Assembly (NCBI GenBank): GCA_013426785.1
Contig: JACDZI010000003.1
Location: 14,361-78,360 of the forward strand
DNA: 64,000 nt
Source: Rhodocyclaceae bacterium
GTDB taxonomy: Bacteria; Pseudomonadota; Gammaproteobacteria; Burkholderiales; Rhodocyclaceae
Direction: 5' to 3'
The translations under genes and the position numbers were made by a program. Positions 2,653-63,705 of this stretch are shown here, piece by piece (position 1 is the first letter of the stretch; every line of letters begins with the position of its first letter). The notes beneath the pieces were generated by a model. That model had not been told where the DNA came from. It worked only from the letters and a program-made list of their open reading frames with translations, and searched no databases.

Positions 2653-3621
2653 TCACAAAGTGATCAGGGCTGCACCCCAGGTAAACCCGCCGCCCACGCC
2701 TTCGAGCAACGCCGTCTCGCCAGCGCCGACTTTTCCCGAGCGCACCGCTTCGTCAAGGGCCAGCGGCACCGAGGCCGCCGAGGTGTTACCGTGCCGATCC
2801 ACCGTGACGATGCACTTCTCCGCAGGCAGGCGGAGTTTTTTCGCGGTCGCCTGCATGATGCGGATGTTGGCCTGATGCGGAATCAGCCAGTCCAGTTGTG
2901 CCGGAGTCATGCCAGCGGCGGCAATGACTTCCTCGGCAACCTCGGCCAGCACCTTGACGGCAAACTTGAACACGGCCGGGCCGTCCATCCGTACGAACGG
3001 ATCGCCCACCGGCTGACCACCACAGACATGTCCCGCCACGGCGAGAATGTCGCGATGGCGGCCATCGGCGTGCAGGGCCGTCGCGCGGATGCCCGGTCTG
3101 TCGCTGGCTTCCAGAACCAGCGCCCCGGCACCGTCGCCGAACAGCACGGAGGTACCGCGATCCTGCCAGTCGAGGATGCGTGAGAAGATTTCGGCGCCGA
3201 CCACGAGGGCGCAGCGATGCGAACCGGAGCGGATGAACTTGTCGGCCGTCGCCAGGGCATAGAGGAAACCGCTGCAGACCGCCTGAACGTCAAACGCGGG
3301 GCAGCCGTTGGTAATGCCCAGCTTGTCCTGCAGGATCGTGGCGGTACTGGGGAAAATGAAATCCGGGGTGGACGTCGCCAGGACGATCAGGTCGACCTCA
3401 TTGGGCTGGCGGCCGGCGGCTTCAAGCGCGCGCTGGCACGCTTGCAAAGCCAGATCGCTCGCGGCGATGCCCGCCGGAGCAAAATGCCTGAACCGGATAC
3501 CGCTACGCTCGACGATCCAGTCATCTGAGGAATCGATGCCACGTGTCGAGATCAATACGGCATTGCCGACGGGAGCACCGGGCAAATAGCTTCCGGTACC
3601 GGTAATACGGGAGTGGATCAT
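2653..3621 (-). CDS. fabH: 3-oxoacyl-ACP synthase III
   Basis: 322 aa with the CSGFLYAL active-site Cys region, HQAN, and the [11 protein letters not shown]-terminus. Follows plsX. Confidence 0.95.
2714..2734 (+). repeat. Motif copy 1 (consensus GTCCCGCCAGCGCCGACTTTT)
   Basis: gtctcgccagcgccgactttt, 1 mismatch, preceded by gcc. Inside fabH, antisense to the gene, read as KVGAGET. Confidence 0.9.
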
Positions 3622-3631
3622 CGCGGCGGGA

Positions 3632-4669
3632 TCAATCGCATAGGGTGGGTTCGGGGGCCATATTCTGCATCGCGGCAGCCATGCGCGTGGCGATTTTTTC
3701 CGGCAGCCGTTGACGGGCAGCTTCGGCCGCGCGTCTCAGAGCATGACGGAAAGCCAGCACATCGGCAGAACCGTGACTCTTGACCACCACGCCTTTGAGA
3801 CCCAGCAGGCTGGCACCGTTGTAGCGCCGATGATCGACACGCGCCCGGAAAGCAATCAGCACCGGCATGGCGAACAATCCCGCGAGTCTGGTCAAAGCGT
3901 TGCGCGAAAACTCTTCGCGCAGGAAGACGCGGATCATCTGGGCGAGGCCCTCCGAGGTCTTAAGCGCGATGTTGCCAACGAAGCCGTCGCAGACCACGAC
4001 AGCCGCAGTGCCTTTGTAGATATCGTCGCCCTCGACGTTGCCAATGAAGTTGAGCCCGCTGTTTCGCAGGAGTTCCCCGGCCCGCTTCACCACCTCATTG
4101 CCCTTGATCTCCTCCTCGCCGATGTTGAGGAGGCCCACCGTCGGCCGCTCGTCATGTTCCAGCGCCGCCGCCAGCATGGCACCCATGATGCCGAACTGCA
4201 ACAGGTGATCGGGGCCGCAGTCCACGTTGGCACCCAGATCGAGCACATAGGTATGGCCCTTCATCGAAGGCAGGATCGAGGCAATCGCCGGCCGGTCGAT
4301 GCCGGGCAGGGTTTTCAGCACGAAACGTGAAATGGCCATCAGCGCCCCGGTATTGCCGGCGGAGACCGCACCATCCGCCTGCCCGTCCTTGACCAGATTG
4401 GCCATGACGCGCATCGACGAATCCTTCTTGTTGCGCAATGCGGTGGCAACCGCCTCATCCATCGCAACGACCTCGGTCGCGTGATGAACGGTAATGCGGT
4501 TGCTCAAATCGGCGCCAGCCTTTGCCAGCAAAGGCTGGATGGAGGCTTCGAGGCCGACGAGAATGGCCCGGCAACTCGAATCTTCCTGCAGGAACTCGAG
4601 CACGGCCGGGACTACCACGGCGGGGCCATGGTCGCCCCCCATGCAGTCGACAGCAAGCGTTATGGTCAT
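3632..4669 (-). CDS. plsX: Phosphate acyltransferase PlsX
   Basis: 345 aa starting [16 protein letters not shown]. rpmF-plsX-fabH synteny. Confidence 0.95.
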
Positions 4670-4682
4670 TCAGGCACGCCTA

Positions 4683-4713
4683 TGAAAACGGCCGGACGTT
4701 CGCACGCCCGGCC
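4683..4713 (-). terminator. Stem-loop / partial terminator downstream of rpmF
   Basis: On the minus strand: GGCCGG-12 nt loop-CCGGCC (4690-4713) followed by GTTTTC. Lies in the rpmF-plsX gap. Confidence 0.4.
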
Positions 4714-4732
4714 GCATTCTGGCAATAACCGG

Positions 4733-4912
4733 TCACTCGCCCTTGGTCTTGATGACCTTCTTGCCGCGATAAACACCGGAGGGAGAAATGTGATGACGCA
4801 GGTGCACTTCGCCGGTGGTCGGCTCAATGGCGAGAGGCGGCGCGCTCAGAAAATCATGCGCACGATGCATGCCGCGTTTGGAGGGGGACTTCTTGTTCTG
4901 CTGGACGGCCAT
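4733..4912 (-). CDS. rpmF: 50S ribosomal protein L32
   Basis: Below the ORF-track size cutoff. Hand translation: [59 protein letters not shown]. Lies between yceD and plsX. Confidence 0.93.
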
Positions 4913-4937
4913 GATGACTCCTTACTTCAAAATCGTT

Positions 4938-6151: not shown

Positions 6152-6158
6152 ACGCCGG

Positions 6159-6878
6159 ATGACGGGCACACTGTATCTTTTGCCGACCCGACTCGGCGCA
6201 TCGGCATGGCAGTTGGTTCTGCCGGCCGAAAGCCGCGAGATCGCCTGCCGGCTACGGCACTTTGTCGTCGAGAATGCCAAGACGGCGCGCGCCTCGCTCA
6301 AATGGCTGGAGCATCCGGTAGCCTTGCGCGAGTTGGTCATCGAGCAGTTGCCGGAACCGCTCAAACCCGTCGACATCGAGCGCCTGCTGGCTCCCCTGCA
6401 AGCAGGAAACGATCTGGGGCTGATGTCGGAAGCCGGCTGTCCCGGCGTCGCCGACCCCGGTGCCCTGCTGGTACGCCGCGCCCACGAGCTCGACATTGCA
6501 GTCCGGCCGCTGGTCGGCCCCTCCTCGCTGCTACTGGCGCTGATGGCCTCCGGACTGGATGGCCAGCGCTTCGCCTTTCACGGCTACCTGCCGCAACGGG
6601 AACCGGAACGCTCGAAACGCATCGTCGAACTGGAAAAGGAATCGCGGCAGAAACGCCAGACCCAGTTGTTCATTGAGACGCCGTACCGCAATCAGGCGCT
6701 GTTCGATGCACTGACATCCGCCTGCGAGGCGGAAACCCTGTTGTGCGTCGCCACCGACCTGACGCTGGCCAGCGAAACCATTGCGACACGCCGCATCACG
6801 GACTGGCGCCAACGCCGCCCCGCCAGCGCCGACTTTTCGCGGCGACCGACGGTCTTTCTGTTGTTCAGCGCAGGCTGA
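6159..6878 (+). CDS. SAM-dependent methyltransferase, tetrapyrrole-methylase fold (RsmI-like)
   Basis: 239 aa: LYLLPTRLG ... SEAGCPGVADPG ... GPSSLLLALMASGL, as in RsmI/TP-methylase family members. Confidence 0.7.
   Translation: MTGTLYLLPTRLGASAWQLVLPAESREIACRLRHFVVENAKTARASLKWLEHPVALRELVIEQLPEPLKPVDIERLLAPLQAGNDLGLMSEAGCPGVADPGALLVRRAHELDIAVRPLVGPSSLLLALMASGLDGQRFAFHGYLPQREPERSKRIVELEKESRQKRQTQLFIETPYRNQALFDALTSACEAETLLCVATDLTLASETIATRRITDWRQRRPASADFSRRPTVFLLFSAG
6817..6837 (+). repeat. Motif copy 2
   Basis: gccccgccagcgccgactttt, 1 mismatch. Inside the methyltransferase gene, sense, read as PASADF. Confidence 0.9.
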
Positions 6879-9769: not shown

Positions 9770-12415
9770 ATGAAACGCATGCTGTTCAATGCGACGCAAG
9801 CCGAGGAACTCCGCGTCGCGATCGTTGATGGTCAGAAACTGATCGACCTTGACATCGAATCGGCCGCAAAAGAGCAACGCAAGAGCAACATCTACAAGGC
9901 TGTCATCACCCGCATCGAGCCCAGCCTCGAAGCCGCCTTCGTCGATTACGGCGCCGAGCGTCACGGCTTCCTGCCCTTCAAGGAAGTCTCCCGCAGTTAC
10001 TTTGCCACCGATATCGAACCCGGCCGCGCCCGCATCCAGGACGCCCTCAAGGTTGGCCAGGAACTGATCGTCCAGGTCGAGAAGGACGAGCGCGGCAACA
10101 AGGGCGCCGCCCTGACCACCTACGTATCGCTCGCCGGCCGCTATCTGGTCCTGATGCCCAACAACCCGCGTGGCGGCGGTGTTTCGCGCCGCATCGAGGG
10201 CGAAGACCGCCAGGAATTGCGGGAAGTCATGGATCAGCTGGAAGTCCCCAACGGCATGAGCCTGATCGCCCGCACCGCCGGCATCGGCCGCAATTCCGAA
10301 GAGCTGCAGTGGGACCTCAACTACCTGCTGCAACTGTGGCGGGCCATCGACGGTGCCGCCAAGTCGCAGACCGGTGCCTTCCTGATCTATCAGGAATCCA
10401 GTCTGGTCATCCGCGCCATCCGCGACTACTTCCATGCCGAGATCGGCGAGATCCTCATCGATACCGACGACATCTTCGACCAGGCCCATCAGTTCATGAG
10501 CCATGTGATGCCGGGCAATGTGTCGCGCGTCAAGCGCTACCGCGATGACGTGCCGCTGTTCTCGCGCTTCCAGATCGAGCACCAGATCGAATCGGCCTAT
10601 TCCCGCCAGGTCACCCTGCCCTCGGGCGGCGCTATCGTCATTGACCACACCGAAGCGCTGGTGTCCGTCGACGTCAACTCCGGCCGTGCCACCAAGGGCA
10701 GCGACATCGAGGAAACCGCGTTCCGCACCAACTGCGAAGCGGCTGACGAAATCGCCCGCCAGCTCCGTTTGCGCGACCTCGGTGGCCTGATCGTCATCGA
10801 CTTCATCGACATGGAGTCGAGCAAGAACCAGCGCGAAGTCGAAAACCGCCTGCGCGATGCCCTACACTTCGACCGTGCCCGCGTCCAGACTGGCAAGATC
10901 TCCCGCTTCGGCCTGCTGGAATTGTCCCGCCAGCGCCTGCGCCCGGCCCTGGCCGAAACCAGCTACATCACGTGTCCACGGTGCACCGGCACCGGCCACA
11001 TCCGCTCGACCGAATCGGCTGCGCTGCACATCCTCCGCATCCTCGAAGAGGAAGCGATGAAGGAGAATACCGGCGCCATCCACGTGCAGGTTCCGGTCGA
11101 CGTCGGCACCTTCCTGCTCAACGAGAAGCGCGTCGATATCGCCCGCATCGAGGCGCGTCACCGCGTCAATCTGCTGATCATCCCCAACCGCCACCTCGAG
11201 ACGCCGCAGCACGAGATCATCCGCCTGCGCCACGACCAGTTGAACCAGGAAGGGCAAGCCCTCGCCAGCTACGAGATGGCGGTCAAGCCGACGGAAGAAG
11301 CCAGCGCCTCGCTCGCCGCGCAAGCCGAAGGCAAGGCGCCCCGTGCGGAAGCTGCCGTGAAGGGCATTACGCCTGACCAGCCGGCACCCACGGTCGCACC
11401 GAAGGAACTTCCCCCTCCCCCGCCGGCACCCGGTTTCTTTGCCAAGATCATGTCCATCTTCTCAAGTGGCAAACGCGCAGAGCCGACCGAAACGCCAAGG
11501 AAGGAAGAAGCTCCGGCACGACGCGAAAAGAGCGAACGCAACGAGCGCGGTGACCGAGACCGTGGCGGTCGTGGAGGTCGTGACAATCGGGACAGGAAGG
11601 AAGGTCGCGATAAAAACGAGCGGGGCGATCGAACTGAACGGGGCGAGCGCAAGGAACGTCCGGTCGAATCCGGCAACAAGGAGCGGGATAACCGTCAAGG
11701 CAACCGCAAGGAGCGCGGTGAGCGCAGCCCCGACAACCGTCGCGAAAATCGGGCGGCCGACGCCAATGTAAATGGCGGTAGCGAAAACCGGCAACCTCGC
11801 AACAAGCCGGCCGAAACGCAGGCGACCGATGCACCGGCCCTCATGGCCCCCATTCCTGCCGACAATGCCAGCTTTGAGAGCAATGGCGACGGTGGTCGCC
11901 GGCGTGGTCGTCGTGGTGGGCGCGGTCGGGGTGAGCGACGCAATGAAGAAGCGGTCAACACCTCCAGTACCGAGGTAACCGACAGCATTATTGAAGTTCC
12001 CGTCCGGGCAGATGCACCGGTTGCCGCTGCCGTGCTGCCAGCACCGACTTTTGAGGCTCCGCTGTCAGCCAAGCCGGTTCCTTGGCCCACGCCGATCCCG
12101 ATGGCACCGGCTTTACCCGCCATCGAAGCGGTAGTCGAGCCGGTACCTGTGCTTGCTTCGCCAGTCGTCGAAGAAACCGCGCCGCAACCTGTCGCCGTTC
12201 AGGACACCATTCCCGTTGTGATCATCCCTCCCGCGGAACCTGTTGACATGTCGGCAGAGCTACAGAAGGCGGGATTGCAACTGATCGAAACAGTCAGCGC
12301 CGCGCCTGTATCAATGGTGAACACGCCGGTCCAACCCCTTGGACGCAAGCCCAAACCACCGACGATCCTCAATGATGAACCATTGCAAATGGTGGAAACC
12401 CAGCCCAAGGAATGA
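9770..12415 (+). CDS. rne: Ribonuclease E
   Basis: MKRMLFNATQAEELRVAIVDGQKL ... catalytic N-terminal half, CPRCTGTG Zn-link, Arg/Glu/Asp-rich and Pro-rich scaffold C-terminus. GGAG lies before the ATG at 9770. Confidence 0.95.
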   Translation: MKRMLFNATQAEELRVAIVDGQKLIDLDIESAAKEQRKSNIYKAVITRIEPSLEAAFVDYGAERHGFLPFKEVSRSYFATDIEPGRARIQDALKVGQELIVQVEKDERGNKGAALTTYVSLAGRYLVLMPNNPRGGGVSRRIEGEDRQELREVMDQLEVPNGMSLIARTAGIGRNSEELQWDLNYLLQLWRAIDGAAKSQTGAFLIYQESSLVIRAIRDYFHAEIGEILIDTDDIFDQAHQFMSHVMPGNVSRVKRYRDDVPLFSRFQIEHQIESAYSRQVTLPSGGAIVIDHTEALVSVDVNSGRATKGSDIEETAFRTNCEAADEIARQLRLRDLGGLIVIDFIDMESSKNQREVENRLRDALHFDRARVQTGKISRFGLLELSRQRLRPALAETSYITCPRCTGTGHIRSTESAALHILRILEEEAMKENTGAIHVQVPVDVGTFLLNEKRVDIARIEARHRVNLLIIPNRHLETPQHEIIRLRHDQLNQEGQALASYEMAVKPTEEASASLAAQAEGKAPRAEAAVKGITPDQPAPTVAPKELPPPPPAPGFFAKIMSIFSSGKRAEPTETPRKEEAPARREKSERNERGDRDRGGRGGRDNRDRKEGRDKNERGDRTERGERKERPVESGNKERDNRQGNRKERGERSPDNRRENRAADANVNGGSENRQPRNKPAETQATDAPALMAPIPADNASFESNGDGGRRRGRRGGRGRGERRNEEAVNTSSTEVTDSIIEVPVRADAPVAAAVLPAPTFEAPLSAKPVPWPTPIPMAPALPAIEAVVEPVPVLASPVVEETAPQPVAVQDTIPVVIIPPAEPVDMSAELQKAGLQLIETVSAAPVSMVNTPVQPLGRKPKPPTILNDEPLQMVETQPKE
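12032..12052 (+). repeat. Motif copy 3 (degenerate)
   Basis: gtgctgccagcaccgactttt, 3 mismatches, preceded by gcc. Inside rne, sense, read as LPAPTF. Confidence 0.7.
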
Positions 12416-13282: not shown

Positions 13283-14836
13283 TCAGATGGGTTTGATGGT
13301 TGATTCGTCGATGCTCGCGTCGAACAGGTCGCAGGCCTCGCGCACGAAGGGATCACCCTTGATCGCGGCGATGGCACGCTCCTGGCGCTCGCGCCTTTCG
13401 TTTTCGGCCTTGGCTTTCGGGGTCTGGCCAGCCGGTTCGACCAGTTGGATATCGAGAGTCAGCGCTCGACCGTAATGTCTGGCCAGTTCCGCGCGCAGTT
13501 TGTCCTGATGCGGCTGCAGGTGCTTATGAGTCGGAGCAATGCGCAAGACGATACCAGTGTCAGACTGGCGAGCAAGTTCGCAGTGCTGAGCCAACTGGCG
13601 AACCATGCCAGTCAGGGGTAACTGGCCGACCAACGCATGCCAGTCACTGTCAGCAGCGACGCGTTCCACTGGCGGCACAGACCTGACCGGAGCGGAGGTC
13701 ACCACTCGCACCGCTGCCGTCCCGCCAGCGCCGACTTTTATCGGTTCATGGTCGCTCGCAGGTCGAAACGCAAACAGACGCAGCAGCGTCATGCCGAAGC
13801 CGGCTGCCTCGTCGGGCGCCAGCGCCAATTCATCGCGACCGTGGATGAGGATCTGGTAACACAGTTGCAGATATTCGGGATCGAGACGCTCGGCATACGG
13901 GGCCAGCCGTGACTGCTCCGCAGCGTCGGGCAGCGCATCAGGCGCGAATTGCAGCAAGGCGATGCGGTGCAGCAGCGTGGCCAGTTCCAGCAGGGCGGAT
14001 TCGAAGCTCAGGCTGCGTTCCTCGATCGTCGCGGCGACCGCGAGCATGGCATGGATGTCGCCAGCGACCACCCCATCAAGTAGGGCATAGAGGTGATCGT
14101 CGCCCACCGTGCCGAGCATGGCACGCACCCCCTCGTCTTCAATGCGGCCAGCGCCGTGGGCGATCGTCTGATCGAGCAGCGACAAGGCATCGCGCATCGA
14201 TCCGGCGGCGGCCTTGGCGAGGTGACGCAGTGCCGCTGGCTCGAAGGCCACCCCCTCGGCGTCGAGCACCCGCGACAGGTGATCAATGATATGACCGGGC
14301 GGCATCTGCTTGAGGTTGAATTGCAGGCAGCGCGATAGTACGGTCACCGGAATCTTTTGCGGGTCGGTGGTCGCCAGGATGAACTTGACGTGCTCGGGCG
14401 GTTCTTCCAGCGTCTTCAGCATCGCGTTGAAGGCGTGGCCGGACAACTGGTGCACTTCGTCGATCATGTACACCTTGTAGCGGCCGCTGTTGGGGGCATA
14501 GGCCGCCTTCTCCAGTAACGCCGCCATATCCTCGACACTGCGGTTCGAAGCGGCATCCATTTCGACGTAATCGATAAAGCGACCGGCATCGATCTCCAGA
14601 CAGGACGAGCAGACGCCGCAGGGTGTCGGCGTGATGCCTTGCTCGCAATTCAATGCTTTCGCCAGGATGCGCGCGATGGTGGTCTTGCCGACGCCGCGCG
14701 TACCGGTAAACAGGTAGGCGTGATGCAGACGGTTTTGTTCGAGGGCGTGCGTGAGGGCGCGCACGACGTGCTCCTGGCCGACCAGCGTGTCAAAGGACTT
14801 GGGGCGCCACTTGCGGGCCAGGACGAGATAGGACAT
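13283..14836 (-). CDS. dnaX: DNA polymerase III subunit tau/gamma
   Basis: MSYLVLARKWRPKSFDTLVGQEHV ... GTRGVGKTT Walker A, CGVCSSC zinc module, DEVHQLS. Confidence 0.95.
   Translation of the reverse strand: MSYLVLARKWRPKSFDTLVGQEHVVRALTHALEQNRLHHAYLFTGTRGVGKTTIARILAKALNCEQGITPTPCGVCSSCLEIDAGRFIDYVEMDAASNRSVEDMAALLEKAAYAPNSGRYKVYMIDEVHQLSGHAFNAMLKTLEEPPEHVKFILATTDPQKIPVTVLSRCLQFNLKQMPPGHIIDHLSRVLDAEGVAFEPAALRHLAKAAAGSMRDALSLLDQTIAHGAGRIEDEGVRAMLGTVGDDHLYALLDGVVAGDIHAMLAVAATIEERSLSFESALLELATLLHRIALLQFAPDALPDAAEQSRLAPYAERLDPEYLQLCYQILIHGRDELALAPDEAAGFGMTLLRLFAFRPASDHEPIKVGAGGTAAVRVVTSAPVRSVPPVERVAADSDWHALVGQLPLTGMVRQLAQHCELARQSDTGIVLRIAPTHKHLQPHQDKLRAELARHYGRALTLDIQLVEPAGQTPKAKAENERRERQERAIAAIKGDPFVREACDLFDASIDESTIKPI
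13719..13739 (+). repeat. Motif copy 4 (exact)
   Basis: gtcccgccagcgccgactttt preceded by tgcc. Inside dnaX, antisense, read as KVGAGGT. Confidence 0.95.
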
Positions 14837-15676: not shown

Positions 15677-15697
15677 AGAAGTCGGCGCTGGCGGGAC
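15677..15697 (-). repeat. Motif copy 5
   Basis: Plus strand agaagtcggcgctggcgggac, 1 mismatch. Intergenic, 6 nt beyond the stop codon of the hybrid kinase. Confidence 0.9.
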
Positions 15698-15702
15698 CGC
15701 AG

Positions 15703-18396
<2,694 letters not shown>

Positions 18397-19619: not shown

Positions 19620-20492
19620 TCAGTTGGCAAGAAGGAAATCCCGCACCAGCGCGATTTGGGCATCATTCAGGAACATCGGCGCATGGCCGACACCCGCGAC
19701 CTCAACGCTACAGGGGCGGGGACCGCGCTCCCGCATCGCCGCCACCGTATCACGCGACAACAGGTCGGAATGCTCGCCGCGGATCACGCAGGTCGGGCAG
19801 CGAATCGCATCGTAGAGCGGCCACAACTCGACATCCTGCCCGGGCCCCTGTGACTGCGCAGCGGCCAGGAAGGGCGCCGCAATACCCGGGTCATAACGCA
19901 GTGCCAGCCGTCCTGCCAGCGCCGACTTTTTCACCACGCTTTCCGTCAACTGGCGCCATTGCGCAGCGGAGAGATTGCCGAATGGCGCACCCACCGCACG
20001 AATATAGGCCTCCGCTGCCTCGATCGAGTCGAATTCAGGTGGATTGGCCAGGTACTCACCGATGCGACCGAGCGCCGCCGCCGCTATCACCGGCCCGACA
20101 TCATTGAGGATCAACTTGCGGATGGGCGTCTCGGCCTGTGCCGCCAGCCCCATGCCGATCAGCCCCCCCATCGAGGTGCCGAGCCAATCGATCGATTCGA
20201 CATCGAGGCGCGCCAACAACACCATCATGTCGGCAACGTACTGGGGGACGGCGTAATACTGGGAATCGCGCAACCAGTCGCTCTGCCCGCGCCCCACGGT
20301 ATCCGGACAGACAACGCGGTATTCGTCACACAGCGAGCGGGCGAGAAAATCGAAATCGCGACCGCAGCGCGTCAGACCATGCACGCAAACCAGCACACGG
20401 GGATTGTGCGGATCGCCCCACTCCACATACGCCATGCGGTGCAGTCCCGCCGGCGAGAGGCAACGGACTGTCCGCTGGCGAGGATCGGCCAT
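19620..20492 (-). CDS. Alpha/beta-fold hydrolase
   Basis: VCVHGLTRCGRDFD ... GTSMGG nucleophile elbow; 290 aa. Confidence 0.8.
   Translation of the reverse strand: MADPRQRTVRCLSPAGLHRMAYVEWGDPHNPRVLVCVHGLTRCGRDFDFLARSLCDEYRVVCPDTVGRGQSDWLRDSQYYAVPQYVADMMVLLARLDVESIDWLGTSMGGLIGMGLAAQAETPIRKLILNDVGPVIAAAALGRIGEYLANPPEFDSIEAAEAYIRAVGAPFGNLSAAQWRQLTESVVKKSALAGRLALRYDPGIAAPFLAAAQSQGPGQDVELWPLYDAIRCPTCVIRGEHSDLLSRDTVAAMRERGPRPCSVEVAGVGHAPMFLNDAQIALVRDFLLAN
19910..19930 (+). repeat. Motif copy 6
   Basis: gtcctgccagcgccgactttt, 1 mismatch, preceded by gcc. Inside the hydrolase gene, antisense, read as KSALAGR. Confidence 0.9.
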
Positions 20493-21314: not shown

Positions 21315-23177
21315 TCAGGAACAACAAGGATTAAGCACTTTGATCAACGCAGACATGGCATTATCGAGCGACCCGATAATTTCATCAAGTTCGGGATCGA
21401 CCAACCCTTGCTTCAGTCGGGCATCAGCGGCCGTTGCCCACTTCTGCACCTCGACAGCGCCGAGAATTCCCGCCACGCCCTTGAGCGAGTGGGCGATGCG
21501 GCGGGCATCGGGCAGGTTGCCGCTGGCCATGTTGGCTCGCATCAGCCCCAAATCGCCGCTGTGCTCTTCGATAAAGCGGCCCAGCAACTGGCGGTAGCGG
21601 AGCTTGCGCCCCAGCAGGGAGACCAAACCGGCCTCTACATCCAGCCCAGCGAGGGCTTCGAGATCGCTGAGGTCATCCCCGGCTGTAATAGTCGGCGCTG
21701 GCGGGACGGCGATGCTGCGGTTCTTGGCCAGGTCGATTGGCGCTTGCTCCGGAGCCTTCGGGGCATCGTGGTCGATCTTGCCGCCGGCCAGGACATACAG
21801 CAGTTCATCGTGGAGATGCGCTGCCGTCCGGGGTACGGAGACGATACCGTCGAATTGTACGGCGCAGATATTCTTGGCGTCTTCGGCATCGTGATCCTTA
21901 GAGGCTACCAAGATGAGGGGCGGAATCTTGCCAAGGCGCGGCTCGCGCAATCGCCGCAGCGCATCACCCGCGAATAATTTATCGATGGCGGCGAGCGGTG
22001 CATGGCATAACACCAGATCGTAAGGCATGCCAGCCCGCACGGCGGTTTTGATACGCGTCGCGGCTTCCCGGCCATTGCGCCAGGCATAGAAGCGCATTCC
22101 CAGCTTCACCACCAGATTGCCCAGTTCGGCAATCTGCCGATCATCCTGACCAATGATGAGAACTCGGCAATGGTTCAGGTCGACTACGGGTGTAATGGGC
22201 ATGACCACTTGCGCCGGCTGAAAATCAGCCTCGAACCAGAATGTACTGCCCTTGTTCGGTTCGCTTTCGGCACCAATGCGACCGTGCATCAAGTCGGCAA
22301 CCCGGCGGCAAATCGCCAGTCCGAGCCCGGTACCGCCATGCAGGCGGGTAGTCGAATCATCCCCCTGCTCGAAGGCGCGAAATAGCCGCTCATGCGTTTC
22401 GGGGCCAAAACCGATCCCCGAATCCTGCACTTCGAAACGGACACGCTGTCCGGCATCGATCTTTGACAGATCGAGGATGTCATTGATGATTGCCAGCAGG
22501 TGCTGAGCTGCGGCCGACATCTTGAGCAAACGGCCGCGCTGTTTCGGGTCGTCGATATCCTGCAGCATCAACTGGCCCAGGGCGATGACCGCATTCATCG
22601 GCGTGCGGATCTCGTGGCTCATATTGGCGAGGAAAGAACTCTTCGCCTCGTTGGCCGCCTCGACGGCGCGGCGGCTGGCTTCCAACGCCTGCGGGGTCTG
22701 GGTCAGCTTGGCTGTGCGCTCCTCTACCAGTTTCTGAAGGTGGTGGCGATGGCGATCCAGTTCCTGCCCCATGCGCTTGCGGTCAGTGATGTCCTCCTTG
22801 ATGGCGAGGTAATGGGTGATGTGGCCGGCATCATCGTGCAACAGGGAAATCTCCGCAAACTCGGTGTATTCCTCGCCGTTCTTGCGGTGATTGATCATTT
22901 CGCCTTTCCATACATTCCCCGCTTGCAGGCAGGCGAACATGGCCTCGAAGATGGATCGAGGCGTCTTGCCCGAAGACAGTATCCTCGGGTTATGGCCGAG
23001 CAAATCTTCCCTTAGATAGCCAGACAAGTCACAGAATGTCCGATTGGCGTACACGATATTGGCTGCCAGATCGGTGATGACGATGCTGCTTGGGCTCTGC
23101 TCGACCACGAGCGCCAACTGACACAACAGGACGTCGTCGAGAGGTGGCGAGACATTATGCAAATGCGGCTTTCCCAT
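21315..23177 (-). CDS. Hybrid histidine kinase (PAS, HisKA, truncated HATPase_c lacking N-box, degenerate receiver, HPt); possibly non-functional
   Basis: SHEIRTPMNAV H-box. SKIDAG is joined directly to QRVRFEVQDSGIGF, so about 85-95 aa including the N-box are missing relative to the neighbouring kinase. The receiver-like region has LVLCH instead of LVLMD. HPt (AHSLKG) is present. Confidence 0.75.
   Translation of the reverse strand: MGKPHLHNVSPPLDDVLLCQLALVVEQSPSSIVITDLAANIVYANRTFCDLSGYLREDLLGHNPRILSSGKTPRSIFEAMFACLQAGNVWKGEMINHRKNGEEYTEFAEISLLHDDAGHITHYLAIKEDITDRKRMGQELDRHRHHLQKLVEERTAKLTQTPQALEASRRAVEAANEAKSSFLANMSHEIRTPMNAVIALGQLMLQDIDDPKQRGRLLKMSAAAQHLLAIINDILDLSKIDAGQRVRFEVQDSGIGFGPETHERLFRAFEQGDDSTTRLHGGTGLGLAICRRVADLMHGRIGAESEPNKGSTFWFEADFQPAQVVMPITPVVDLNHCRVLIIGQDDRQIAELGNLVVKLGMRFYAWRNGREAATRIKTAVRAGMPYDLVLCHAPLAAIDKLFAGDALRRLREPRLGKIPPLILVASKDHDAEDAKNICAVQFDGIVSVPRTAAHLHDELLYVLAGGKIDHDAPKAPEQAPIDLAKNRSIAVPPAPTITAGDDLSDLEALAGLDVEAGLVSLLGRKLRYRQLLGRFIEEHSGDLGLMRANMASGNLPDARRIAHSLKGVAGILGAVEVQKWATAADARLKQGLVDPELDEIIGSLDNAMSALIKVLNPCCS
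21687..21707 (-). repeat. Motif copy 7
   Basis: Plus strand aatagtcggcgctggcgggac, 1 mismatch. Inside the second hybrid kinase, sense, read as PPAPTI. Confidence 0.9.
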
Positions 23178-28306: not shown

Positions 28307-28984
28307 TCACTGTTCGCTCAGTCGTCCGTCCTCAAGAAAAAGTCGGCGCTGGCAGGACGCCGCCAGCGCGGCATCGTGCGTGACGATGATCAAGCTGGTT
28401 CGGAAATCGGCATTCAGGCGCAGCATCAGCGCGAATACTTCGTCGGCGGTATGCCGGTCGAGGTTGCCGGTCGGTTCGTCGGCCAGCACGCAGGCCGGCC
28501 TGGTTACCAGCGCCCGCGCCAGCGCCGCGCGCTGGCGTTCGCCGCCCGACAATTCCCCCGGCCGGTGCCTGAGCCGATCACCCAGCCCGACCTCGGCGAG
28601 GATCGCTGCTGCCTTTTCCGTCGCCTCGGCCTTGCTCATGCGCCGGATCAGCAGCGGCATGGCGACGTTTTCCTGCGCGGTGAATTCCGGCAACAGATGG
28701 TGAAACTGGTAGACAAAACCGAGGCACTCGTTGCGCAGCCGGCCGCGTTCGGTTTCCGACACTTTCGCCAGATTCTTGCCCAGCAGATGCACCGAACCGG
28801 CCGAGGGCGCATCCAGCCCACCGAGGAGGTGCAACAGGGTGCTCTTGCCCGAGCCGCTCGCCCCGACGATGGACACCGTCTCGCCTGCGCCGACTTTCAG
28901 ATCGACCCTGGCCAGCACGTGAATCACTTCCCTTCCCTGCTGGAAGGATTTGCTCAACCCCGCGCAGGCAAGCACCTCATTCAT
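28307..28984 (-). CDS. lolD: Lipoprotein-releasing ABC transporter ATP-binding protein
   Basis: [11 protein letters not shown] Walker [16 protein letters not shown] signature, [10 protein letters not shown] Walker B. Overlaps lolC/E. Confidence 0.9.
28338..28358 (-). repeat. Motif copy 11
   Basis: Plus strand aaaagtcggcgctggcaggac, 1 mismatch. Inside lolD, sense, read as CQRRLF. Confidence 0.9.
28878..28898 (+). repeat. Motif copy 12 (degenerate)
   Basis: gtctcgcctgcgccgactttc, 3 mismatches. Inside lolD, antisense, read as KVGAGET just before Walker A. Confidence 0.6.
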
Positions 28985-30227: not shown

Positions 30228-30263
30228 GGAGGCGTGATTCTAACCGTCGCCTCAAATCATGCC

Positions 30264-30284
30264 GTCCCGCCAGCGCCGACTTTT
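30264..30284 (+). repeat. Motif copy 13 (exact)
   Basis: gtcccgccagcgccgactttt preceded by atgcc. Intergenic, between the lolC start and the stop of the cNMP-AckA-PduL gene. Confidence 0.95.
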
Positions 30285-43000: not shown

Positions 43001-45327
43001 CAGGCGCGCTCCACTATCAGGCTGCCGAACAACGGCCCCACTGCGACAGTACTCGCATGGGCGGCAGGAATGCGCACGCAGTTCCCAGGGACACCGGCAT
43101 CCAGTTCTGCCTTCAGGGCCGTCCCGCCAGCGCCGACTTTTACCTGCTGGCCGGCGGCGATGCCAAGGCTGGCCAGCGTCGCGGCATTCATGCGCGCAGT
43201 CGGGGCGACGGCATCTTTGGTCGCTTGCAGACTCGGCGCGCGGCGCACCAGCGGGTCGGCGAAATGGATCGGCACATCCGCCACCCGCTGCAACCCACTC
43301 GCTTCATCGGCCAGTTGCAGGGCACCGGGCTTGACGGCATTGTCGAGTCCCGCAACAAACTCGGGCTTGCCGCCCAGGCAGGCATCGCGCACCGTTTCGC
43401 TGCTGTCATAATCGAAGCCGGCGAGGTTGAGCAGGTTGCCCAGCACGCGCAGCACCTTCCAGGCCGGACGCGCTTCGCCCAGCGGTTTGGTGACGGCGTA
43501 AAAACCCTGCACGCGGCCTTCGGTATTGACGAAGGTGCCCGAGGTTTCGGTGAAAGGCGCGACCGGCAGCAGCACGTCGGCGTAATCGAGCGCCGCCGGC
43601 GACTTGAAGGGTGAAAGAACGATCACGCTGGACGCCTGTTGAAGGGCGGCAAGTGCCGCCGCGCCATCGGCACAGTCCAGTTCCGGCTCGGCATTGACAA
43701 TAAGATAAGCCTTCCTCGGCTGCGCAACAAGTTGAGCAGCATTGAGGCCACCCTGCTGCGGGCAGGCTTTGGCCACATAACCGCCGACGCTATTGGCTGC
43801 TTCGCCGAGGATGCCCAACTTGCCGCCGAGCAGTTCCGCCAGTTGCTGGGCAAGACGCTGCAGGGTCGCCGCCTGCAGATGCTGCTGGGCGAAGTTGCCG
43901 AGCAGGATACCGGCCTTGCGACCCGAGAGCAGACTCTTGGCAATGAGTTGTGCCGTCTCGCCAGCGCCGACTTTTTCAAATTCGGTGGGTAGTGGCGCAT
44001 TCTTGAGGGCCACCACGGCCTTGACCACTTCAGCCAAAGTGGCGGGTAATTGCGACGGCGACACGACGGCCTTGGCGAACAGCTTGATCAGTAGGTCGTC
44101 ATCGGCAGCGTGGACTACGGAAACTTGGGTGCCGCGCTTGGCAGCCTGGCGCAGGCGCTGGGCGATGAGCGGATGATCCTTGCGCAGGAAGCTGCCGACC
44201 ACCAGCACACGGTCGATCTGGCCGAGTTCGGCGATGGGCATGCCCAGCCATGGAACCCCGGCACGCTGGCCGTCGAGACTGAAATCGCTTTGACGCAAAC
44301 GAAAATCGATGTTGTCCGAGCCGAGGCCGCGCATCAGTTGCCCGGCCAGCGCCATTTCTTCGAGAGTCGCATGCGGACTGACCAAAGCGCCGAGGCCAGC
44401 CGGACCGTGCTGCTTGGCCACGTCGCGCAAGGCATGGGCCGCATAGTCGAGCGCAACGTTCCATGCGACTTCCTGCCATTTGCCGCTCTGCTTCACCATC
44501 GGCCGGGTCAGGCGCTCGGCGGAATTGAGCCCCTCGTAGGAGAAGCGCTCCTTGTCGGACAGCCAGCATTCGTTGATCGCTTCGTTTTCCAGCGGCAGCA
44601 AGCGCATCACCTTGTCGTTCTTGACCTGGACGATCAGGTTGCTGCCCAGCCCGTCATGCGGGCTGACCGACTTGCGTCGCGACATTTCCCAGGTCCGCGC
44701 TGAGAAACGGAACGGCTTGGAGGTCAGCGCACCCACCGGGCACAGGTCGATGATGTTGCCCGACAGCTCGGAGTCCACCGTCTTCTCGACGAAGGGCATG
44801 ATCTCGGCGCGGTCACCGCGAAAGGCCTGACCCAGTTCCATTTGGCCGACGATCTCCTGCGTGAAGCGCACGCAGCGGGTGCAGTTGATGCAGCGGGTCA
44901 TGTCGGTGCTGACCAGCGGCCCGAGATTTTTGTTGCTGACGACGCGTTTCTCTTCTTGATAGCGCGAGGCGGAACCGCCATAGCCGACAGCCAAGTCCTG
45001 CAACTGGCACTCGCCGCCCTGGTCGCAGATCGGGCAGTCGAGCGGATGGTTGATCAGCAGGAACTCCATCACGGATTTCTGCGCCTTTACCGCCAGGTCG
45101 GAATGGGTAAATACCTTCATGCCGTTGGTGACGGCAGTGGCGCAGGCCGGCATCGGCTTCGGCGCCTTCTCCACCTGCACCAGGCACATGCGGCAGTTGG
45201 CCGCAATCGACAGCTTCTTGTGGTAGCAGAAGTGCGGGATATAGACCCCGGCCTGATGCGCGGCCTCGATGACGGTGGAACCGTCCTCGACCTGCAGCGC
45301 CTTGCCGTTGATCTCGAGCTCTAGCAT
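43000..45327 (-). CDS. nuoG: NADH-quinone oxidoreductase subunit G
   Basis: 775 aa: N-terminal 2Fe-2S ([15 protein letters not shown]) and 4Fe-4S motifs ([20 protein letters not shown]), molybdopterin-like domain. Confidence 0.95.
43121..43141 (+). repeat. Motif copy 15 (exact)
   Basis: gtcccgccagcgccgactttt preceded by ggcc. Inside nuoG, antisense, read as KVGAGGT. Confidence 0.95.
43955..43975 (+). repeat. Motif copy 16
   Basis: gtctcgccagcgccgactttt, 1 mismatch, preceded by tgcc. Inside nuoG, antisense, read as KVGAGET. Confidence 0.9.
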
Positions 45328-56968: not shown

Positions 56969-58165
56969 ATGCGCATCCTGATGATCTCCGACGTTTACTT
57001 CCCCCGTATCAACGGCGTCTCCACTTCCATCGAGTCCTTCCGGCACACGCTGGCCGAACTGGCGATCGAGGTCGATGTCGTTGCCCCGCGCTATCCCGCC
57101 AGGCATGTCGACGATGACCGCATCACCCGCATCGATTCGCGGCAGGTTCCCTTCGATCCGGAAGATCGACTGATGCACTCAGGGGCACTCGGACGGGCAC
57201 TTGAGGCTCTGGCCGACCGCCGCCACGATCTGGTCCATATCCAGACGCCTTTCGCCGCCCATTACGCCGGCCTGCGCCATGCCCGCCGCCACCACCTGCC
57301 CTGCGTCGCCACCTATCACACCCATTTCGAGGAATACCTGCACAACTACGTGCCAGCCGTACCCAAAAGTCTGATGCGCGCACTGGCGAGAAAACTCGCC
57401 CGCCACCAGTGCAACGAGCTCGATGCGGTGATCGTGCCATCGATCGCCATGCAGGACACGCTCACCAGTTATGGCATCACCGTGCCGCTCCATCGCGTTC
57501 CCACCGGCATCCCGACCGCCCATTTTCGCCGTCCCGCCAGCGCCGACTTTCGCCAGCGCCACGCCATTCCGGCCGACAGTCCGGTGGCACTGTTCGTTGG
57601 CCGCACCGCGCATGAAAAAAACATCGGTTTCCTGCTCGAAGCCCTGCCGCATGCCCTGCGCCTGTCACCCGAACTGCTGTTGGTCATCGCCGGTGAGGGG
57701 CCGGCGCTGGCCGATCTGAAAAAACAGGCCACCGCGCTGGGCATTGCCGACCGGGTACGCTTCGTCGGCTACCTCGACCGCAACCGGGAACTCCCCGATT
57801 GCTACGCTGCCGCCGACCTGTTCGCCTTTTCGTCCCGCACCGAAACCCAGGGACTGGTGCTGCTCGAAGCGATGGCGGCTGGCCTGCCGGTACTGGCCTT
57901 CTCGGCACTGGGCACGCGCGATATCGTTGAACCCAGGCGTGGCGCCCTGCCCGCCCCCGAAAATGTTCATGGCTTCGGCACCGCCATGGCCACCCTTGCC
58001 AACGATTCAAAACTGAGAGCCCGCATGACCACAGAGGCACAGGCTTTCGCCGAGGAATGGACGACGAGCGCCTGCGCCACAAGGCTGGCCGGGTTCTATG
58101 GCGACATCACCCGGGCCGTCCAAAAAATCGATTTATTCACGCCGGCCTCCGTCACACACTCTTAA
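56969..58165 (+). CDS. Glycosyltransferase family 4 (Agt-like candidate glycolipid synthase)
   Basis: MRILMISDVYFPRINGVSTS ... GT4 N-terminus. EX7E-type C-terminal region (RTETQGLVLLEAMAAGLPV). Confidence 0.8.
   Translation: MRILMISDVYFPRINGVSTSIESFRHTLAELAIEVDVVAPRYPARHVDDDRITRIDSRQVPFDPEDRLMHSGALGRALEALADRRHDLVHIQTPFAAHYAGLRHARRHHLPCVATYHTHFEEYLHNYVPAVPKSLMRALARKLARHQCNELDAVIVPSIAMQDTLTSYGITVPLHRVPTGIPTAHFRRPASADFRQRHAIPADSPVALFVGRTAHEKNIGFLLEALPHALRLSPELLLVIAGEGPALADLKKQATALGIADRVRFVGYLDRNRELPDCYAAADLFAFSSRTETQGLVLLEAMAAGLPVLAFSALGTRDIVEPRRGALPAPENVHGFGTAMATLANDSKLRARMTTEAQAFAEEWTTSACATRLAGFYGDITRAVQKIDLFTPASVTHS
57531..57551 (+). repeat. Motif copy 17
   Basis: gtcccgccagcgccgactttc, 1 mismatch, preceded by cgcc. 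Inside the first GT4 gene, sense, read as PASADF. Confidence 0.9.
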
Positions 58166-58979: not shown

Positions 58980-58981
58980 CG

Positions 58982-61409: not shown

Positions 61410-61429
61410 GGCATGCCCAAAAACTGCAA

Positions 61430-62272
61430 TTAGGCCCAGCGAATCGCAACCGCGCCGAGCACCACGAGCGTGGCACCGGCAATGCGCCAGCGGCCCATGT
61501 GCTCCTTAAGCAGCCAGACACCGAGAATCGCAGCAAAGATCACCGAGGTTTCACGCAGGGCGGCAACGGCCGGAATCGGGGCGACCGTCATCGCCCACAA
61601 CACGATGCCGTAGGACCCCATAGTCAGCACCGAACCGAGCAGCGAGAACAGCCAGCGGCGGCGCAGATGAATCAGTGCTGATCGTCCCCGTCGCCAGACG
61701 GCAACCCCGAGTACCAGCCAGGCATTGAGGAAGAACAGCCACATGGTATAGGCAACGGCATGGCCGGAATGCCGGGCGCCGATGCCATCGATGATGGTGT
61801 AGAGCGCAATTACCCCGGCGGTTGCAAAGCCGTAGACCAGCCCAGCCTTGGTCACCCTGCCACGCCGGATGCCAACCCAGACCGGCAGGGCGATGCCGGT
61901 CGCCACCAGCACGATACCCAGCCAGAGGCCCGGCGTCAGCGCATCCCCCGCCAGCGGCGCGGCAAGCCCCACCAGCACCGGCGCGCTGCCGCGCATCAGC
62001 GGATAAGCCAGCGACAAATCGGCATGCTGATAGGCGCGCATCAGTAGTAGATAATAGGCGACGTGGATAAACACGGTGCATGACAGCCAGGGCCAGCTGG
62101 CTGCTGCCGGCAATGACAGCCACGGCAAGGCAAAGACGGCCACAATGGCTCCGGCTACGGCCAGTCCGGTGTAATCGAGGAAACGGTCGGCGCTAGCCTT
62201 GACAATATAATTCCAGCCGGCGTGCATCAATGCCGAAAGGAGTACCAACAGTGCAACCGGCGTGGAGATCAC
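61430..62272 (-). CDS. EamA/DMT-family transporter
   Basis: 280 aa, ~10 TM segments, N-terminus LLSALMHAGWNYIVK typical of EamA proteins. Confidence 0.75.
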   Translation of the reverse strand: MISTPVALLVLLSALMHAGWNYIVKASADRFLDYTGLAVAGAIVAVFALPWLSLPAAASWPWLSCTVFIHVAYYLLLMRAYQHADLSLAYPLMRGSAPVLVGLAAPLAGDALTPGLWLGIVLVATGIALPVWVGIRRGRVTKAGLVYGFATAGVIALYTIIDGIGARHSGHAVAYTMWLFFLNAWLVLGVAVWRRGRSALIHLRRRWLFSLLGSVLTMGSYGIVLWAMTVAPIPAVAALRETSVIFAAILGVWLLKEHMGRWRIAGATLVVLGAVAIRWA

Positions 62273-63705
62273 GCCGTGGCGGGCCAGGGCAAAGAGTAGG
62301 TCTTGAGGTTGGTAAAGCTCTTCATAGCCTCGAGCACGCCCTCCTTGTAGCCGAGGCCGGAATCCTTGATGCCGCCGAAAGGCGTCAGTTCCAGACGGTA
62401 ACCCGGTACCTCGCGAATATTCACGCTGCCGACCTGCAATTCATTGACGCAGCGGGTGATGACATCGAGGCGGTTGGTGCATAACCCGGACGACAGGCCG
62501 AAGGCCGTGGCATTGACGATGGCAATGGCCTGGTCAAGAGTTTCGAATCGGATCACCGGCGAAACGGGTCCGAAAGTTTCCTCCTTCACCACGGTCATCT
62601 CCGGGCGAACGTGGTCGAGCACGGTCGGTGCATAGAGCGCACCGAGTCGCTCGTTGCCCAGCAACAGTTGTGCGCCCTGCTTCACGGCTTCTTTGACGCG
62701 TGATTCGAACAGCTTTGCGGCTGCCTCGTCGATTACCGTACCCATGTCCACGGTTTCCTCAATGGGATTGCCGTACTGCCAGCGCCGACTTTTTTCGAGC
62801 AGCAGTTCGACGAAGCGATCCGCCACGCTTTCCTGGACGATCATGCGCTTGACGGCGGTACAGCGCTGGCCTGAGTTCTTGTAGGAACCGGCGACGGCAA
62901 GATTGGTCGCCTCGTCCAGATCGGCGTCGTCCATGACAATCAGCGGGTCGTTGCCACCGAGTTCCAGCACGGTGCGGCGGTAACCGATTTTGCCAGCGAT
63001 ATATTTGCCAATCGGCGCACCCCCGGTGAAGGTCACCAGATCGATATGGGGGTTAGTCAGCAACTCGTCGGCGATCTCGGCGGGATCGCCGGTGACGACC
63101 TGGAACATCGGCGGCGGCAAGCCGGCCTCGTAGAGGATGTCGGCCAGTAACAGCGCGGAAAACGGCACCTTCTCGGAAGGCTTCAGCACCATGCGGTTGT
63201 TGGTGGCGATGGCCGGCACGACCTTGTGCGCTACCTGGTTCATCGGATGGTTGAACGGGGTGATGGCGGAAATCACGCCCAACAGCGGGTCGCGCTGGGT
63301 ATAGACCCGCCGCGCCCGGCCGTGCGGCGTGATGTCGCAACTGAAGATCTGGCCATCGTCGTCCAGTGCGGCGTTGGCACCAAAGACCAGCACGTCGCGC
63401 ACACGACCGGCTTCGTAGCGGCTGTCCTTCTTGCACAGGCCGGCCTCGGCGGTGATCAGGTCGCTGATTTTCTCGGTGCGCGCCACCACGATGTCGGCGG
63501 CCCGCCGCAGGATCTCGTAGCGCTGGTAACGCGTCAGGGTCGGCTTGTAGGCATGGGCAAGCGCGAAGGCACGGCGCACATCCTCGACGCTTGCCTTGGG
63601 TACCGTGCCGATGCAACCCTCCGTGTAGGGATTGAAAACCTCGATCACTCGTTCGCGGTGTAGCAGTTCGCCGCCGATGCGCAAGGATTCCTGGCGGAAA
63701 TTCAT
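62269..63705 (-). CDS. Aldehyde dehydrogenase family protein (phosphonoacetaldehyde dehydrogenase PhnY-like?)
   Basis: 478 aa ALDH ([14 protein letters not shown] catalytic Cys, EETFGP). The PhnY suggestion rests on the remembered C-terminal pattern and the divergent PhnC-like ABC gene. Confidence 0.8.
62773..62793 (+). repeat. Motif copy 18
   Basis: gtactgccagcgccgactttt, 2 mismatches, preceded by tgcc. Inside the aldehyde dehydrogenase gene, antisense, read as KSRRWQ. Confidence 0.8.

Follow-up and report, generated by a model that had tools for sequence, protein, structure and literature searches.

Background

Uptake sequences are known from the Neisseriaceae and the Pasteurellaceae only according to a 2025 survey, and about half of the known ones lie in terminators (10.1101/2025.10.24.684340). 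Here, we analysed a 64,000-nt stretch of the chromosome of a Rhodocyclaceae bacterium (assembly GCA_013426785.1, contig JACDZI010000003.1, positions 14,361 to 78,360 of the forward strand), hereafter called the window, in which a non-palindromic, asymmetric 24-nt word, GCCGTCCCGCCAGCGCCGACTTTT, recurs 18 times. This phenomenon is real and, as far as our literature search showed, undescribed: no paper was found with the sequence, or with a mention of uptake sequences in the Rhodocyclaceae or its genera, and no such lineage is mentioned by Kingsford 2007. By analogy with the DNA uptake sequence (DUS) of the Neisseriaceae and the uptake signal sequence (USS) of the Pasteurellaceae, we give a probability of about 0.5 to the reading that the 24-mer would be a third, new family of uptake-type self-recognition sequences.

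The DUS (ATGCCGTCTGAA, receptor ComP) is, like the word described here, hyperabundant, oriented, non-palindromic and shared across a betaproteobacterial family. Both are more conserved than their surroundings, lie within coding sequences (CDS) in the frames that are tolerated, are strand-neutral and form occasional inverted pairs between convergent genes. However, the DUS measures 10-12 nt as against 24 nt, about half of its copies lie in terminators (10.1101/2025.10.24.684340) whereas the word is mostly intragenic, and the two sequences are unrelated save for the hexamer GCCGTC, which is no evidence of homology. The USS (AAGTGCGGT core with AT-rich flanks; predicted receptor ComN, PMC12616744) likewise has the majority of its copies in coding DNA, with an origin by substitution in less-constrained protein segments and a frame bias (PMC2817400), and its total footprint, about 24-30 bp, is similar. 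It differs in having a 9-nt core with weak flanks, whereas about 19 of the 24 positions of the word are near-invariant, and the word is GC-rich and belongs to another lineage. The resemblance to DUS (GCCGTC) or USS (AAAGT..GG) was considered and set aside as too weak to serve as evidence.

Other short repeats offer partial parallels. Hyperabundant repeats can be the cognate sites of site-specific single-stranded DNA (ssDNA) nucleases that modulate transformation (PMC11893778). Repetitive extragenic palindromes (REPs), alone, in bacterial interspersed mosaic elements (BIMEs) or as REPINs with their RAYT proteins, are also short, GC-rich and genome-wide, and an array in one relative, Sulfuricystis multivorans, likewise consists of hairpins made from the core of the word; REPs are nevertheless imperfect palindromes located outside genes, whereas the word is asymmetric and 89 % of its window copies are intragenic. 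The cyanobacterial HIP1 (GCGATCGC) is an 8-nt palindrome that is hyperabundant inside genes, arose by substitution and is conserved at orthologous sites; it matches the word in these respects and differs from it in being a short palindrome instead of a 24-nt asymmetric sequence. Hyper-repeated 11-mers present in other betaproteobacterial loci were rejected as parallels, since none of them is motif-like: those of L207 and L221 turned out to be simple tandem repeats, and those of L185 and L188 an NTS-like hairpin.

Results

Eighteen copies of a sharply bounded 24-nt word

The window was searched on both strands for the 21-mer GTCCCGCCAGCGCCGACTTTT with up to three mismatches, and 100 dinucleotide-preserving shuffles served as control. 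Eighteen copies were retrieved (four exact, 11 with one mismatch, one with two and two with three; 13 on the + strand and five on the - strand), which reproduces exactly the sites and the mismatch counts given by the original prediction, made from the sequence of the window alone. No match was obtained in any of the 100 shuffled windows (expected 0, observed 18). The exclusion of chance, already argued in that prediction, thus holds, and an artefact is ruled out as well by the in-frame orthologous copies found in dozens of independent assemblies (see below). Copies are fairly evenly spaced, at about one per 3.6-4 kb.

Alignment of the 18 copies with 30-nt flanks delimited a conserved block of 24 nt, GCCGTCCCGCCAGCGCCGACTTTT (i.e. 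GCC followed by the 21-mer), whose edges are abrupt, with less than 0.5 bit outside and 1.2-2.0 bits inside. CCGACT is invariant in all window copies, and no terminal repeat, target-site duplication or conserved flank beyond the 5' GCC surrounds them; in these respects the predicted description was accurate. Every occurrence of the cores GCCAGCGCCGAC or CGCCGACTTT in the window is part of a near-complete copy, with the exception of 59793-59816. The window therefore has no tail of degenerate copies, sites being either near-perfect or unrelated save for this borderline one. The sequence at 59793-59816, GCCATTACGCCAGCGCCGACCTGT, five mismatches away from the motif, belongs to the second GT4 glycosyltransferase gene, where it is read as YASADLF. 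Either a proto-site or the remnant of a copy may be present here, superimposed on a conserved protein motif.

As DNA, the basic 24-mer forms no hairpin on either strand and folds no better than its shuffles, in line with the earlier claim that it is neither palindromic nor hairpin-forming. Neither of the two intergenic window copies (15677..15700 and 30261..30284) belongs to a terminator-like hairpin, and a hairpin or terminator was rejected on these grounds. The word also departs from REP/BIME elements in this absence of folding and in the location of 16 of its 18 copies within CDS. Finally, an Rfam scan of the window matched only the signal recognition particle (SRP) RNA and a tRNA-Leu, and the motif matched no family, so that a known RNA is ruled out.

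Host genes were named by Pfam, and a gene map was drawn from codon usage with a codon log-likelihood caller validated on Pfam-supported genes, GC3 being useless for calling the coding strand in a host genome where GC1 is close to GC3. The map comprises 55 genes, 43 of them on the - strand, and 0.92 of the window is coding. The gene content is that of an ordinary core chromosome (fab cluster, rne, dnaX, comEC-lolCDE, recJ, nuo operon, tpiA, pst). Pfam and the codon-usage map together confirmed that 16 of the 18 copies (89 %) lie in functionally unrelated CDS, six in sense and ten in antisense, with all six frames used. The copies are listed below (coordinates, strand, host and peptide read).

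2711..2734, + strand: fabH (gene 2653-3621, - strand), antisense, KVGAGET; no indel versus FabH homologues of the PDB
6814..6837, + strand: near the 3' end of a TP_methylase-like open reading frame (ORF; 6159-6878, + strand), sense, RPASADF; Pfam match just under the cut-off
12029..12052, + strand: rne (gene 9737-12415, + strand), sense, VLPAPTF; 3 mismatches
13716..13739, + strand: dnaX (gene 13283-14836, - strand), antisense, KVGAGGT; exact
15677..15700, - strand: intergenic, 3 nt past the stop of a hybrid histidine kinase gene (15703-18396, - strand) and 16 nt from the SRP RNA gene (15563-15661, - strand)
19907..19930, + strand: alpha/beta hydrolase (gene 19620-20492, - strand), antisense, KSALAGR
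21687..21710, - strand: PAS histidine kinase (gene 21315-23177, - strand), sense, VPPAPTI
23699..23722, + strand: comEC (gene 23202-25535, - strand), antisense, KSALAGR; exact
24956..24979, + strand: comEC, antisense, KSALAGR
25458..25481, - strand: comEC, sense, VLPAPTF
28338..28361, - strand: lolD (gene 28307-28984, - strand), sense, SCQRRLF; no indel versus LolD of the PDB
28875..28898, + strand: lolD, just upstream of the Walker A motif, antisense, KVGAGET; 3 mismatches
30261..30284, + strand: intergenic, within the 60 nt that separate the ackA-pta stop (30288) from the lolE start (30227); exact
32918..32941, - strand: hypothetical ORF (32733-33743, + strand by codon usage), antisense, KVGAGET
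43118..43141, + strand: nuoG (gene 43000-45327, - strand), antisense, KVGAGGT (aa 729); exact
43952..43975, + strand: nuoG, antisense, KVGAGET (aa 451); same length as motif-less orthologues (AGVTVSTEAQ)
57528..57551, + strand: GT4 glycosyltransferase (gene 56969-58165, + strand), sense, RPASADF
62770..62793, + strand: aldehyde dehydrogenase (gene 62269-63705, - strand), antisense, KSRRWQY; 2 mismatches

The 13:5 strand split is explained by the 43 of 55 genes carried by the - strand together with a preference for antisense frames. An enrichment in comEC, which holds three copies, was discarded, as it is not significant given the number of genes and is not conserved in locus L065.

Copies arose by substitution

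As 24 nt correspond to exactly eight codons, in-frame insertion was a serious alternative to the predicted origin by substitution without lengthening of the host proteins. FabH aligned end to end with solved FabH structures, the motif peptide standing gap-free opposite DGRIKRGQNVLIEG; both LolD sites were gap-free against solved LolD structures, opposite SLQVEAGQFVSIVG and LAQAADSILHMEDG; and among 120 aligned NuoG orthologues, motif-less sequences of equal length were found at both sites (e.g. AGVTVSTEAQ). The word therefore replaced pre-existing codons, and the amino-acid changes are often non-conservative. The prediction was borne out here: copies in constrained genes arose by substitution, and a 24-nt in-frame insertion is ruled out for FabH, both LolD sites and both NuoG sites. 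In unconstrained intergenic spacers, on the other hand, the presence of the motif goes with length differences, and in one spacer the motif-bearing sequence is the longer.

The coding frame was called with confidence for 108 copies, distributed as follows.

antisense phase 2, KVGAGGT: 46 copies
sense phase 0, AVPPAPTF: 28 copies
antisense phase 1, KSALAGR: 20 copies
sense phase 1, RPASADF: 9 copies
sense phase 2, PSRQRRLF: 4 copies
antisense phase 0, KSRRWRDG: 1 copy

Frame use thus favours mild peptides, with counts falling from 46 to 1. Such skewed counts indicate that the word is imposed on the proteins and that purifying selection purges the frames giving Arg/Trp-rich peptides. The same kind of frame filtering has been reported for DUS and USS (PMC2817400; 10.1101/2025.10.24.684340).

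With GC skew used as a proxy for the position of origin and terminus, 110 of 221 copies lay on the strand with negative local skew, so that orientation is unrelated to replication. This check, suggested along with the original prediction, excludes a replication-polar motif of the Chi type or of the type of the FtsK-orienting polar sequences (KOPS), which moreover measure 5-8 nt as against 24 nt.

Spread and conservation among relatives

The possibility that copies are confined to this locus was examined with a species scan for the exact 21-mer, based on one genome per GTDB species, and does not hold. The 21-mer is present in at least 53 GTDB species assemblies (117 stretches listed) and, among the matches listed, nearly all are Rhodocyclaceae, assigned to Sulfuritalea, Sulfurisoma, Rugosibacter or Propionivibrio, or unclassified; the exact 21-mer also occurs in 33 IMG/VR viral contigs. 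The GC content of the retrieved motif-bearing stretches ranges from 53 % to 68 %. Beyond the copy that seeded retrieval, 8-kb stretches of relatives hold one extra copy (up to 4 mismatches) per 2-16 kb, i.e. one per 8.2 kb overall. The NuoG of the window is at most 87 % identical to any sequence in the protein collection, the named relatives by this protein being S. multivorans (79 %), Sulfurisoma sediminicola (78 %) and Sulfuritalea sp.

In 956 kb of DNA of this clade, copies with 0, 1, 2, 3, 4 and 5 mismatches numbered 109, 51, 36, 32, 16 and 7, while no copy with 0-5 mismatches was present in 457 kb of control loci that lack the motif and have a similar GC content. A comparison around lolE (80 betaproteobacterial metagenome loci orthologous to the window lolE, 61-86 % protein identity) showed that 74 loci lack any copy at up to 5 mismatches and that six carry relaxed versions, GCCGTnTCGCyrGCGCCGACTTTy; the site orthologous to the lolD copy at 28875..28898 is motif-like in six related metagenome loci. 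In motif-less betaproteobacteria, the site orthologous to the comEC copy at 24956..24979 stands 5-13 mismatches from the word.

The word is far more constant than the coding sequence around it. Across 66 orthologous pairs (flank identity below 90 %), flanks were 76.1 % identical and the motif 94.0 %, its eight third-codon positions included. The relative L135 carries both nuoG copies at the same positions with 24/24 and 23/24 identity in a gene otherwise about 71-75 % identical. Among the 120 NuoG orthologues, KVGAG[GE]TA was found exactly in 59 at site 1 and in 23 at site 2, a further 38 and 48 matching at least six of the eight residues. Because all frames and both orientations are used and synonymous positions are conserved across species, the conserved entity is the DNA and not a peptide or RNA, as the original prediction had it. 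Copies at orthologous sites are ancient and were passed on by descent; they did not spread recently.

When 237 copies were pooled, variation was concentrated at positions 1, 6, 7, 8 and 24, giving the pattern CCGT-N3-GCCAGCGCCGACTTT. Deviating forms, seen in S. multivorans (GAAT) and at loci L151-L168, may be dialects; the graded tolerance at positions 1, 6-8 and 24, taken with the GAAT variant, would resemble a binding logo with dialects.

Extension units and inverted pairs

The claim that the copies are not embedded in a longer repeat stood for the window and had to be qualified for the relatives, where about 5 % of copies carry additional units of 21, 24 or 33 nt, none of which occurs in the window. 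As 95 % of copies have unrelated flanks, the 24-mer is not part of a longer repeat. These extension units came to light in NuoG, of which some orthologues have in-frame insertions exactly within the motif-encoded peptide, identical inserted peptides recurring at both independent NuoG sites and in different lineages. They are of several types. Type A is a 33-nt unit, GYCAGCCGGRTCCGCCGCCAACATGGGGACGGC, placed after a G-rich form of the motif and repeating its last 8 nt; in nuoG it is in frame and adds 11 aa (GTASAGSAANx). Part of this unit is a degenerate copy of the motif core in inverted orientation, and the unit folds together with the core into a hairpin of -17 to -22 kcal/mol. In type D, the unit has 21 nt and is a perfect small hairpin, ATGCCCCGCATGGGGCAT or GTGCCCCGCAGCGGGTA; it is inserted after GCCGT and was found, in the sequence examined, only within motif copies or next to them. 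Type B, seen in L231, places 24 nt between GCGCC and GACTTT. Their locations are as follows.

type A, nuoG sites: L135 2725-2781; L232 ~4360-4430 and ~5225-5295
type A, unrelated loci: L075 ~4100-4190; L093 ~5150-5235; L116 ~7730-7815; L139 ~1450-1530
type A, three tandem units: L150 2100-2200
type D: L083 7905-7960; L096 ~5410-5470; L101 2640-2740 (two in tandem); L039 ~7600-7670; L110 ~60-130

Type A and D units sit at fixed breakpoints at independent loci, which implies that sequence blocks move between motif copies. The arrangement suggests a templated copy-and-paste, in which blocks would be copied from one motif copy to another at those breakpoints.

Clear inverted motif pairs are rare, about 4 in some 230 copies (about 2 %). 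One, at L231 1644-1689, lies between convergent genes and resembles a bidirectional terminator. In S. multivorans (AP018718.1; L234 2700-2870), an intergenic tandem array with a 54-nt period, also between convergent genes, consists of hairpins derived from the motif variant ...GCCAGCGCCGAATTTC (CCGCCAGCGCCGAATTTC paired with ATTCGGCGCTCGGCGGGAC), and both nuoG sites of this species are four mismatches away from the word. The forms found in this species may represent a dialect or a decaying system.

Phages, an island and pilin genes

Some of the motif-bearing viral contigs are genuine phages. Exact copies lie in phage portal genes (L008 894-3218, L023 100-2424, L021 7911-9527) and in the gene of a 2151-aa phage protein (L005 3689-10141), and another motif-bearing viral contig, L020, encodes an integrase; copies in phage genes mean that phages or prophages of the clade carry the host word. 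Five copies within 2 kb were also found beside a phage-type integrase in L140. The same stretch holds, at 4150-4800, a 157-aa DprA-like ORF (DNA_processg_A, E = 2e-9) flanked by perfect inverted repeats of about 75 nt, the inner ends of which are motif copies.

The comEC gene of the window is intact, with DUF4131, Competence and Lactamase_B domains. In a metagenome-assembled genome of the motif clade, a minor-pilin cluster (L123 2976-6248) lies downstream of a DUF6701 gene and encodes a GspH/FimT-fold prepilin (2976-3452), two more N-methyl prepilins and a PilX_N-like protein, with AbiEii and nucleotidyltransferase genes interspersed. The GspH/FimT-fold prepilin would be a first place to search for a receptor.

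Discussion

A word that may serve self-recognition

We favour the uptake-type reading because the word is hyperabundant, family-wide, over-conserved and strand-neutral, is filtered by reading frame, originated by substitution and forms occasional terminator-like pairs. What it shares with DUS and USS is a copy number far above chance (18 in the window against 0, one extra copy per 2-16 kb in relatives), its presence in at least 53 species assemblies of essentially one family, a substitution origin with frame bias and, with GC skew as proxy, the lack of a replication-linked orientation. In this scenario, a DNA-binding component of the type IV pilus or competence machinery would prefer double-stranded DNA with CCGT-N3-GCCAGCGCCGACTTT, fragments bearing the word would enter through ComEC more frequently and recombine with the chromosome, and over long periods biased uptake with homologous recombination, i.e. 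a molecular drive, would create and then maintain copies wherever the peptide is tolerated. We can only infer that the driving force is uptake bias and not some other sequence-specific process; the intact comEC of the window and the minor-pilin cluster with its GspH/FimT-fold prepilin in a clade genome would be consistent with it.

The structural part of the original prediction and several hallmarks of DUS and USS were thus recovered, whereas length, terminator share and intergenic enrichment depart from the known systems, and a set of observations weighs against an uptake sequence. The block of 24 nt, variable only at positions 1, 6-8 and 24, contrasts with the 9-12-nt core of DUS and USS; with about 19 near-invariant positions it has double the length of any uptake sequence known and would be a large target for one pilin domain. 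About 2 % of copies form inverted pairs or terminators (about 4 in some 230), as against about half for known uptake sequences, and there is no intergenic enrichment, 16 of 18 copies lying in CDS for a coding fraction of 0.92. At seven or more mismatches, clade DNA and controls are indistinguishable, with no excess at 7-11, hence no visible stepwise route from random sequence to the full word. The extension units suggest some intracellular process that operates on the motif, which uptake bias does not predict, and copies are present in phage portal genes and on an integrase-borne island. Finally, a tblastn search with ComP (query matched to PDB entry 2M3K) in 1.3 Mb of clade DNA returned only pilin N-termini, in a sample far too small for a conclusion.

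Possible conversion between copies

Several of these observations would be accounted for by a selfish, non-insertional repeat that spreads by templated short-patch conversion, an oligonucleotide, ssDNA or another nucleic-acid template overwriting stretches of similar length while an enzyme or guide recognises the 24-mer, so that uptake bias is not needed. Identical type A and D units found only beside the motif, at fixed breakpoints and at independent loci, are what such a process would leave, as are the near-uniform information content, the sharp edges, the all-or-nothing distribution in the window and the missing excess of proto-sites at 7-11 mismatches. The link between motif presence and the length of intergenic spacers and the copies in phages and on an island fit as well. 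We nonetheless hold this explanation to be unlikely: no candidate enzyme or guide was found, the tail of copies with 3-6 mismatches and the graded positions are as expected from point mutation and from a protein logo, copies at orthologous sites are ancient and passed on by descent instead of having spread recently, and ectopic exchange between copies could be a by-product of transformation. A bolder version makes the 24-mer a genetic element of a new kind. As a substitutional repeat, it would overwrite equal-length stretches, without inserting, through motif-anchored templated conversion, possibly guided by base pairing, with the 21-33-nt units as by-products and uptake bias secondary or absent. 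A base-pairing guide would fit the 24-nt length, the near-uniform information content and the C/T wobble positions; we consider this version rather improbable.

A possible chromosomal binding array

The strong cross-species conservation of sites, synonymous positions included, and their fairly even spacing of about 3.6 kb are also what one would expect of an array of binding sites for a chromosomal protein acting in nucleoid organisation, segregation or replication, each site being under selection. Large asymmetric protein sites, Ter among them, offer a parallel to a non-palindromic site of 24 bp. Yet no known system of this kind uses hundreds to thousands of asymmetric 24-bp intragenic sites that cost amino-acid changes, and the orientation is not biased with GC skew, contrary to polar motifs such as KOPS. 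Selection at each site would have to outweigh protein constraint at about a thousand loci, and the copies in phage genes are left unexplained, so that we regard such an array as distinctly improbable.

Possible processing of single-stranded DNA

A role downstream of uptake, as the target of a protein that processes ssDNA in a sequence-specific way and so modulates how transforming DNA is integrated, would follow the Neisseria model of NTS repeats and SsnA. Repeats acting as sites of site-specific ssDNA nucleases provide a precedent (PMC11893778), a site-specific nick would agree with the fixed points at which the extension units sit, and the long forms of types A and D fold into hairpins, as do NTS and the Ssn-related motif (SRM). 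The basic motif, however, forms no hairpin and is mostly intragenic, whereas NTS and SRM are intergenic and clustered around genes (PMC11893778). The published SRM pattern HGTCWY...RNCYNB (PMC11893778) matched neither the window nor any of the long forms (0 hits), which rules out an Ssn-related motif, and no GIY-YIG gene was seen in the window with Pfam; this explanation is therefore very unlikely. Separately, two stretches of a motif-less betaproteobacterial lineage carry a repeat of their own, TGTCATTCTGAGCGMAGCGAAGAATCTGCTTTT (L185 at 4913, 5268, 6726, 6756, 8923 and 11937; L188 at 2062 and 8586), a hairpin that closely resembles the NTS/SRM of Neisseria (PMC11893778).

A possible inserting element

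Lastly, a small mobile element inserting in frame (24 nt being eight codons), on the model of miniature inverted-repeat transposable elements, REPs or the Rickettsia palindromic elements, which like the motif are repeats in frame inside protein-coding genes, could draw on unit lengths of 24, 21 and 33 nt that are all multiples of three, on NuoG orthologues that are longer at motif sites and on a longer motif-bearing intergenic spacer, but is scarcely credible, since the FabH, two LolD and two NuoG sites equal motif-less homologues in length, there are no terminal inverted repeats, target-site duplications or conserved flanks, the motif is not palindromic, the Rickettsia elements are 100-150-bp insertions that lengthen proteins where the 24-mer does not, and only the rare extension units are insertions.

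Significance of the word

The origin, the receptor logic and the respective parts of drive and selection in sequence-specific uptake are contested, and if the uptake-type reading is true the motif would offer a third independent test case, in Rhodocyclaceae that live freely and in abundance in groundwater, lakes and activated sludge. A word twice as long as any known would raise the questions of how a 24-bp specificity evolves, which receptor reads it and how much protein sequence a genome can sacrifice to a DNA-level signal. If that reading is wrong, a force still has to be explained that keeps about a thousand sites of 24 bp constant in at least 53 species despite coding constraints. As a practical marker, the word would help metagenome binning and the assignment of phages to hosts.

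Additional observations

Two simple tandem repeats of unrelated betaproteobacterial loci, at L207 9676-9740 (9 nt, ATGTGCAGA) and L221 1200-1290 (7 nt, GGGATGA), have the initial look of hyperabundant words but form local arrays. In the window, a 792-aa ORF on the - strand (30288-32666) unites a cyclic-nucleotide-binding domain, an acetate kinase and a PTAC phosphotransacylase domain, an unusual fusion. A 253-aa ORF (20536-21297, - strand), which sits between the hydrolase gene and the PAS histidine kinase gene, combines a CheB methylesterase domain with a subsequent match to the phytochrome PHY region.

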